Source of the DNA: Escherichia coli | GTDB lineage: Bacteria > Pseudomonadota > Gammaproteobacteria > Enterobacterales > Enterobacteriaceae | DNA: 64,000 bases | Direction: 5' to 3' (one strand) | Assembly: GCF_003334405.1 (NCBI RefSeq) | Contig: NZ_QOWM01000005.1 | Shown: piece by piece, positions 56,550 to 56,880 of the stretch | Position numbering within the stretch: the stretch's first letter is position 1 | Layout: the number at the start of each line of letters is the position of its first letter | The notes under the pieces: generated by a model | What the model was told of the DNA's origin: nothing | Databases searched by the model: none | The model's input: only the letters and a program-made list of their open reading frames with translations | Made by a program: the position numbers and the translations under genes

Positions 56550-56880
56550 TTGCGTCAGGCAAGGCTGTTATTGCCGGATGCGGCGTGAACGCCTTATCCG
56601 ACCTACACAGCACTGAACTCGTAGGCCTGATAAGACGCGCAAGCGTCGCATCAGGCAATGCTGTTATTGTCGGATGCGGCATGAACGCCTTATCCGACCT
56701 ACACAGCACCGAACTCGTAGGCCTGATAAGACGCGGCAGCGTCGCATCAGGCAATGCTGTTATTGTCGGATGCGGCGTGAGCGCCTTATCCGACCTACAC
56801 ACAGCACTGAACTCGTAGGCCTGATAAGACACAACAGCGTCGCATCAGGCGCTGCGGTGTATACCTGATGCGTATTTAAA
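56550..56880. repeat. BIME / REP palindromic array, about three tandem ~97-bp units
   Basis: GCCGGATGCGGCGTGAACGCCTTATCCGACCTACA...GTAGGCCTGATAAGACGCG...GCGTCGCATCAGGC repeated with small variations; both strands yield repetitive pseudo-ORFs. Confidence 0.75.

Follow-up and report, generated by a model that had tools for sequence, protein, structure and literature searches.

Two classes of BIME provide the background to this work. According to Ton-Hoang et al. (PMC3333891), BIME-2 consists of z2 and y REPs with short linkers and occurs in multiple tandem copies, the number of which varies between strains; BIME-1 combines y and z1, has a long L linker with a site for IHF, and occurs as a single copy. 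The six-unit BIME-2 known as REP325 supplied the Y-linker-Z2 units from which the naRNA4 family was built (PMC4550694). REP325 stabilises yjdM mRNA and cuts the expression of yjdN about 8-10-fold, in part Rho-dependently, and the effects of REPs depend on their context, that is, REPs do not uniformly lengthen mRNA half-lives (bioRxiv 10.64898/2026.03.23.713779). At the level of DNA, Topo-Seq has revealed far more frequent gyrase cleavage at y REPs than at z2 REPs, as well as a gyrase signal of BIME-2 that rises when transcription is blocked; most of the BIME-2 entries seen in Table DS3 of that work have no cleavage sites (PMC6379681).

The same table lists the K-12 copy of the locus studied here, as 'BIMEs2 ... 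holC-pepA' (PMC6379681, Table DS3). A BIME-2 at pepA-holC is thus already known, since the K-12 locus has been catalogued and the family was described decades ago, and strain-to-strain variation of copy number is a textbook property of the BIME-2 family. In this work, we have analysed the pepA-holC spacer in a stretch of 64,000 nucleotides from Escherichia coli (RefSeq assembly GCF_003334405.1, contig NZ_QOWM01000005.1; hereafter the window), where a first-pass annotation had proposed three tandem BIME units of ~97 bp.

Geometry of the array

The array is reported by Tandem Repeats Finder at 56555-56850, with a period of 96, 3.1 copies, 93% matches, 1% indels and a score of 504. An exact-seed repeat search places its three in-register copies at 56552-56647, 56648-56743 and 56744-56839, and the array as a whole extends over 56552-56850. 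All of this is extragenic: it follows the stop of pepA (56549), in the 3' untranslated region of that gene, and precedes the start of holC (56903). The three units are, in their order, 96, 96 and 98 bp long, so that the proposed ~97 bp is correct as an average. Actually, the 98 bp of unit 3 results from a 2-nt AC insertion in its tail-to-tail linker, and because of this insertion the gapless identity of copy 3 is only 66%.

We have further compared the 353-bp spacer with itself, which corresponds to the self dot-plot suggested in the first-pass annotation. The highest identity is observed at lag 96 (0.64 over the spacer, 0.75 inside the array), with secondary peaks at lags 192, 194 and 98, while the maximal identity at any lag reaches only 0.39 in 1000 shuffles. 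This indicates that the tandem periodicity of the array is real and far above chance.

REP composition and BIME-2 identity

The array reads Y-Z2-Y-Z2-Y-Z2, i.e., six REP hairpins in alternating orientation joined by short linkers (tail-to-tail 14-16 nt, head-to-head 12 nt; Table 1). The named short linker motifs of BIME-2 are S and s, l or r; the linkers of the array are described here by their length. For the typing of REPs we have used consensus strings of Y and Z2; they match three Y REPs on the + strand and three Z2 REPs on the - strand, and the string for Z2 is in agreement with the naRNA4 alignment of Rfam. The CTAC feet of the Y REPs are found at 56603-06, 56699-702 and 56795-98, and the GTAG feet of the Z2 REPs start at 56621, 56717 and 56815. 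Folding gives an internal mismatch or bulge in all six REP hairpins. In unit 1, the Y hairpin has an energy of -7.3 kcal/mol as DNA, this Y REP being identical to that of the single K-12 unit, and the Z2 hairpin reaches -12.9 kcal/mol (z -5.5) with a conserved 2x2 internal mismatch; the Z2 hairpin of unit 3 is weaker (-7.5 kcal/mol). As RNA, the whole 361-nt stretch has a folding energy of -162.8 kcal/mol for the + strand (z -9.3) and of -170.8 kcal/mol for the - strand (z -7.9), in both cases far beyond shuffled controls. The truncated Z2 arm that opens the 3.1-copy register starts 3 nt past the pepA stop codon.

Since Y and Z2 REPs, linkers of short length and tandem copies of variable number match the published definition (PMC3333891), the pepA-holC array is a three-unit BIME-2 element. 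The proposal of BIME units between pepA and holC is therefore right, as each unit consists of a Y REP and an inverted Z2 REP.

Two details of the hairpins have also been recorded. Past the last REP lies a terminal hairpin of 9 bp (56841-56872), the 5' arm of which doubles as the 3' arm in the last Z2 REP, while its 3' arm CCTGATGCG resembles the head of a truncated Z REP; this hairpin is kept in every Escherichia BIME allele examined. In addition, the outer stem pairs of the Y REPs (56574/56601, 56670/56697 and 56766/56793) have been compared with the C-G of the family consensus. Among the units sampled in Escherichia, 11 of 16 have T-A at this pair, and the first unit has C·A. The T-A for C-G exchange is a compensated double change that is specific to the locus.

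Table 1 Features of the pepA-holC region, in coordinates of the window.
Feature	Position	Strand	Basis or remark
pepA, leucyl aminopeptidase CDS	55038-56549	+	ORF list; RefSeq annotation of identical loci
99-aa ORF, spurious, internally repeated peptide	56533-56832	-	ORF list
Truncated Z2 arm, GCGTCAGGC (cf. GCATCAGGC)	56552-56560	+	Read from sequence; unit alignment
Y REP, unit 1	56573-56606	+	iREP orientation, ends CTAC; fuzzy consensus match
77-aa ORF, spurious, internally repeated peptide	56585-56818	+	ORF list
Tail-to-tail linker, unit 1, 14 nt, ACAGCACTGAACTC	56607-56620	.	Sequence
Z2 REP, unit 1	56621-56656	+	5' GTAG on + strand; 0 substitutions against the Z2 consensus used
Rfam naRNA4 (RF02564) match 1	56624-56699	-	82.2 bits; covers unit 1 Z2 and unit 2 Y
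Head-to-head linker, units 1/2, 12 nt, AATGCTGTTATT	56657-56668	.	Sequence
Y REP, unit 2	56669-56702	+	Consensus match; hairpin fold
Z2 REP, unit 2	56717-56752	+	Consensus match; hairpin fold
Rfam naRNA4 (RF02564) match 2	56720-56795	-	77.9 bits; covers unit 2 Z2 and unit 3 Y
Y REP, unit 3	56765-56798	+	Consensus match; hairpin fold
Tail-to-tail linker, unit 3, 16 nt	56799-56814	.	Sequence; unit alignment
Z2 REP, unit 3, degenerate loop GACACAACAGCGTC	56815-56850	+	Consensus match
Terminal hairpin: CGCATCAGG, 14-nt loop, CCTGATGCG	56841-56872	+	-9.8 kcal/mol
Leader directly upstream of holC, TATTTAAATCCACCACAAGAAGCCCCATAT	56873-56902	+	Common to BIME and BoxC alleles
holC CDS	56903-57346	+	ORF list; RefSeq annotation of locus
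valS CDS	57346-60201	+	Start overlaps holC end at 57346

Copy-number alleles in E. coli

By megablast, the pepA-holC locus has been found in all of the 5,426 complete E. coli genomes. We have estimated the frequencies of the alleles from the record spans in 59 evenly spaced chromosomal rows of the ranked megablast list, and the following values are thus approximate. Three units (record span 901-903 bp) occur in 27 of the 59 rows (~46%), two units (794-805 bp) in 12 (~20%) and one unit (707-709 bp) in 5 (~8%), and the remaining 15 rows (~681 bp) have a different spacer with no BIME. Sequences retrieved for each span class have confirmed these unit counts. BL21 and O157:H7 carry three units each, and K-12 MG1655 carries one unit in a spacer of 159 bp. 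A synthetic four-unit query has identified a single four-unit allele among the 5,426 genomes, in strain E105 (L105, NZ_CP071375.1), with the order U1-U2-U2-U3 and a spacer of 449 bp. Exact counts are available only for this single genome and for the BIME-less allele described below. Overall, the number of units is strain-variable (1, 2, 3 or, once, 4) as had been suspected, and no particular copy number is required, because 26% of E. coli genomes have no BIME and K-12 has one unit.

We have also tried to rank the genomes by copy number with a synthetic six-unit query, which is uninformative, as three-unit genomes reach 100% coverage too. Counts at '>=80% coverage' are unusable as copy-number counts because overlapping BLAST pieces get joined.

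The composition of the shorter alleles points to the way in which they have arisen. In the two-unit allele that was sequenced, the left part of U1 is joined to the right part of U2 and U3 follows, and in the single unit of K-12 the left part of U1 is joined to the right part of U3. That is, both are exact chimeras of the units of the three-unit allele. Judged from these junctions, the chimeric short alleles are in-register unequal exchanges, with which the notion of a recombination hotspot is in keeping. Further alleles show conversion between units or small deletions, and the exact duplicate of unit 2 in E105 suggests a recent single-step gain. In the simplest account, unequal homologous recombination or replication slippage would add and remove units. 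TnpA(REP), the REP-associated transposase, may contribute as well, since each strand offers a GTAG-REP together with an iREP, which is the in vitro substrate of the enzyme (PMC3333891).

Other species and the BoxC allele

A scan of species representatives with a degenerate holC-start pattern has yielded 99 loci, nearly all of them from named Enterobacteriaceae, and the pepA-holC spacer has been extracted for 92 of the 99 (64-455 bp, median 122 bp). At the same site, BIME-2 is present in E. albertii (three units), E. whittamii (two units), Escherichia sp. MOD1-EC7003 (one unit) and strain SCPM-O-B-8794 (four units). As the same Y/Z2 BIME-2 occupies the same site in other Escherichia, its insertion predates E. 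coli. The units are 91-99% identical within one array, compared with 87-92% across Escherichia genomes. The other Escherichia arrays show this gap clearly, but it is small in the window's own array (90.9% within, about 89% between). Such higher likeness within arrays would fit either ongoing homogenisation or repeated re-amplification.

The BIME-less spacer is of quite a different kind. Of the 5,426 E. coli genomes, 1,405 (26%) have a spacer of 133 bp that contains no REP and that reads, on its - strand, CCCTCTCCC-TTA-GGGAGAGGG-TTA-GGGTGAGGG-T. This motif agrees with the BoxC/PIT/TMECO intrastrand-triplex consensus (PMC4666352). The pepA-holC spacer is thus dimorphic in E. coli, with two unrelated repeat families. 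An example of the BoxC allele is found in E. coli strain 4621 (L005:801-933), at the same site as 56550-56872 of the window. The leader that both alleles share upstream of holC is only moderately conserved beyond close relatives (92 species compared).

BoxC-like motifs have also been seen in the pepA-holC spacer of at least 14 other Enterobacteriaceae species from several genera, with Pseudocitrobacter, Cedecea, Buttiauxella, Phytobacter and Superficieibacter among the carriers (loci L009, L011, L019, L020, L024, L025, L033, L039, L042, L047, L071, L085, L100 and L101 of the scan). They are often paired inversely, and L020 (286 bp) and L085 additionally have internal tandem units of ~66 bp. 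With BoxC-like motifs in at least 14 other species, the pepA-holC spacer therefore repeatedly hosts structure-forming repeats.

Proposed roles on DNA and RNA

The first-pass annotation had stated that such arrays bind IHF or gyrase. The part on gyrase is supported for the K-12 orthologue, because Topo-Seq sites have been published there. In W3110, the 83-bp holC-pepA BIME-2 has gyrase cleavage sites, namely 2 with ciprofloxacin (Cfx), 1 with rifampicin + ciprofloxacin (RifCfx), 0 with microcin (Micro) and 2 with oxolinic acid (Oxo) (PMC6379681, Table DS3). Gyrase thus cleaves the one-unit K-12 orthologue in living cells, and it does so under a rifampicin block of transcription as well (PMC6379681); these cleavage data refer only to this one-unit allele. 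The three Y REPs of the array, Y REPs being the preferred cleavage targets, would by extension serve as transcription-independent gyrase sites on the DNA.

On the RNA side, the array would be transcribed as the 3'UTR of pepA. By analogy with REP325, its hairpins may block 3'->5' exonucleases and stabilise the pepA mRNA in this way, which makes the suggested role as mRNA stabiliser plausible. The same analogy, to a six-unit array of Y and Z2, suggests that the hairpins could partly attenuate the read-through into holC-valS, possibly with the help of Rho, and the strength of either effect would then depend on copy number. Several points speak against these proposed roles: the effects of REPs depend on context, the array faces the opposite way to REP325 relative to transcription and scores below the naRNA4 gathering score on the pepA-sense strand, a quarter of the E. 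coli genomes (26%) do without the BIME while K-12 has only one unit, and most BIME-2 entries seen in the Topo-Seq table have no cleavage sites. The array would most likely act as a gyrase target on DNA and, in the pepA 3'UTR, as a stabiliser and a partial attenuator into holC-valS.

The genes downstream deserve attention in this context. valS is essential, and its overlap with holC possibly provides translational coupling. No sigma-70-like promoter has been found by scanning 56300-57100, the array and the leader up to holC included, so that holC-valS may be expressed by transcription that reads through the array, or else from a promoter that has escaped recognition. Given this result and the structure-forming repeats in the spacer of many Enterobacteriaceae genera, the pepA-holC spacer might even be a selected 'landing pad' rather than a neutral site. 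We have also considered that the number of BIME-2 units, and the choice between BIME-2 and BoxC, might be a heritable and fast-switching dial for transcription from pepA into holC-valS and for the stability of pepA mRNA; both ideas are speculative, and we hold them to be rather unlikely.

A translation-stalling effect of the array on pepA itself is not to be expected. Liang, Rudd and Deutscher reportedly found in 2015 that REPs reduce translation when they lie within about 15 nt of the stop codon, and here 23 nt separate the pepA stop from the first hairpin of the array, the Y REP of unit 1. Our literature searches on pepA/holC with REP, and on the distance of REPs from stop codons, gave nothing usable.

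Alternative explanations

Four other readings of the array have been weighed. One sees in the hairpins no more than a Rho-independent terminator of pepA, with no further meaning in their repetition. The position directly 3' of pepA and the stable, G+C-rich stems agree with it, but our scan for intrinsic terminators (a G+C-rich stem followed by a T-run) has found 0 sites in 56300-57100. Complete termination also looks unlikely, because holC-valS follows directly downstream on the same strand and no promoter-like site has been found in the scanned stretch. We thus consider a mere terminator quite improbable. A comparably small chance is left for the array as a source of naRNA4-like nucleoid-associated sRNAs, which would bind HU, bridge cruciform DNA and condense the chromosome. 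This reading draws on the two - strand matches of Table 1, both over the gathering score of RF02564 (59.5 bits), and on the published finding that HU and naRNA4 condensed DNA, with the complementary 'anti-naRNA4' active in vitro too (PMC4550694). However, what RF02564 models is a single Y-linker-Z2 pair from REP325; a match is to be expected for any BIME-2 unit and simply restates 'BIME-2 unit'. Moreover, the matching strand is antisense to pepA-holC-valS and has no promoter-like site in the scanned 56300-57100, and the pepA-sense + strand stays below the gathering score (55.7 and 51.9 bits). Besides, a 2026 preprint with overlapping authors found REP325/naRNA4 to be without effect on nucleoid volume or REP-REP contacts (bioRxiv 10.64898/2026.03.23.713779).

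The IHF half of the earlier claim leads to the array as a BIME-1-type element (RIP/RIB) that bends DNA through IHF. Some BIMEs do bind IHF, but the IHF consensus WATCAANNNNTTR has no match in the spacer on either strand with up to one mismatch, linkers included, and in its composition the array departs from BIME-1, the single-copy combination of y and z1 with a long L linker (PMC3333891): it has Z2 REPs, linkers of 12-16 nt and three tandem copies. This part of the claim has thus not stood, and an IHF-binding role is very improbable indeed. Still less probability, practically none, can be granted to a real repeat-protein gene in one of the two repeat-spanning ORFs. Both look-alike ORFs, 99 aa on the - strand and 77 aa on the + strand, are present as the first-pass annotation had listed them, and the reading frame is kept across units because the 96-nt period equals 32 codons; yet unit 3, with 98 nt, breaks the frame. 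Neither ORF has a match in NCBIfam, Pfam gives no significant family (best E = 0.019), and none of the 10 RefSeq genomes examined has an annotated CDS in the pepA-holC spacer. In addition, the whole segment is missing from the 26% of E. coli genomes with the other spacer, and the sequence family occurs at dozens of places per genome (median at least 36, megablast). The ORFs are artefacts of the repeat.

Overall, the array is very probably best explained as a three-unit BIME-2 element to which the DNA and RNA roles proposed above would apply, and the units of which would turn over by recombination or slippage.

Other elements in the window

Several further elements have been noticed in the window. 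Rfam reports Ysr276 (RF02850, 'Yersinia sRNA 276') at 55596-55790 on the - strand (181.5 bits), inside the pepA CDS and antisense to it; the probable reason is the conservation of pepA, not the presence of an sRNA gene. At 52447-52484 (+) lies a single, degenerate Z2-like REP, and at 62209-62303 (+) a Y-like REP with a truncated Z1-like head behind it, with no IHF consensus near either of them. A tRNA gene at 44500-44581 (-), with 59.4 bits in Rfam, is what we take to be probably leuX, from its distance to pepA on the K-12 map.

Implications

Beyond its correct annotation, the pepA-holC array is of little consequence. The proper label for the stretch is that of a repeat region (BIME-2, six REPs); its ORFs should not be called genes, and the naRNA4 matches are to be read as 'BIME-2 unit', not as an sRNA gene. 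The length of the array is a possible marker for strain typing. In addition, the locus offers a natural allelic series of 0, 1, 2, 3 and 4 units plus BoxC upstream of an essential gene pair, which makes it a convenient test bed: the series could be used to examine the recent claim that REP arrays are tunable terminator-stabilisers of the 3'UTR.

Comparison with known systems

With the BIME-2 family the array shares the alternation of Y and Z2, the GTAG/CTAC feet, the bulged stems, the short length of the linkers, the extragenic position and tandem units in strain-variable number. There is no essential difference, except that the Y REPs of the array mostly have T-A for the consensus C-G. The likeness to REP325 (the BIME-2 between yjdM and yjdN; naRNA1-6) is close as well, since both consist of a tandem Y/Z2 two-hairpin unit between co-directional genes, and the units of the array exceed the RF02564 gathering score on one strand. 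On the other hand, REP325 has six units and the array three, the orientation relative to the transcription of the upstream gene is opposite, and the head-to-head linker of the array, AAUAACAGCAUU, differs from the 'l' linker of REP325 in the Rfam alignment, AAcGGUGCCGACU.

BoxC/PIT/TMECO (PMC4666352) resembles the array in being a short, dispersed, intergenic and structure-forming repeat in the same spacer. It nevertheless belongs to an unrelated sequence family with the BoxC blocks CCCTCNCCC/GGGNGAGGG, is absent from the window and represents the alternative allele. As to the REPIN/RAYT (TnpA-REP) system, each unit of the array is likewise an inverted REP doublet, and it has the GTAG and the mismatched stem without which TnpA(REP) does not bind and cleave in vitro (PMC3333891); the difference is that the variation of the array consists of in-register gain and loss of units, which can be explained by ordinary homologous recombination or slippage.
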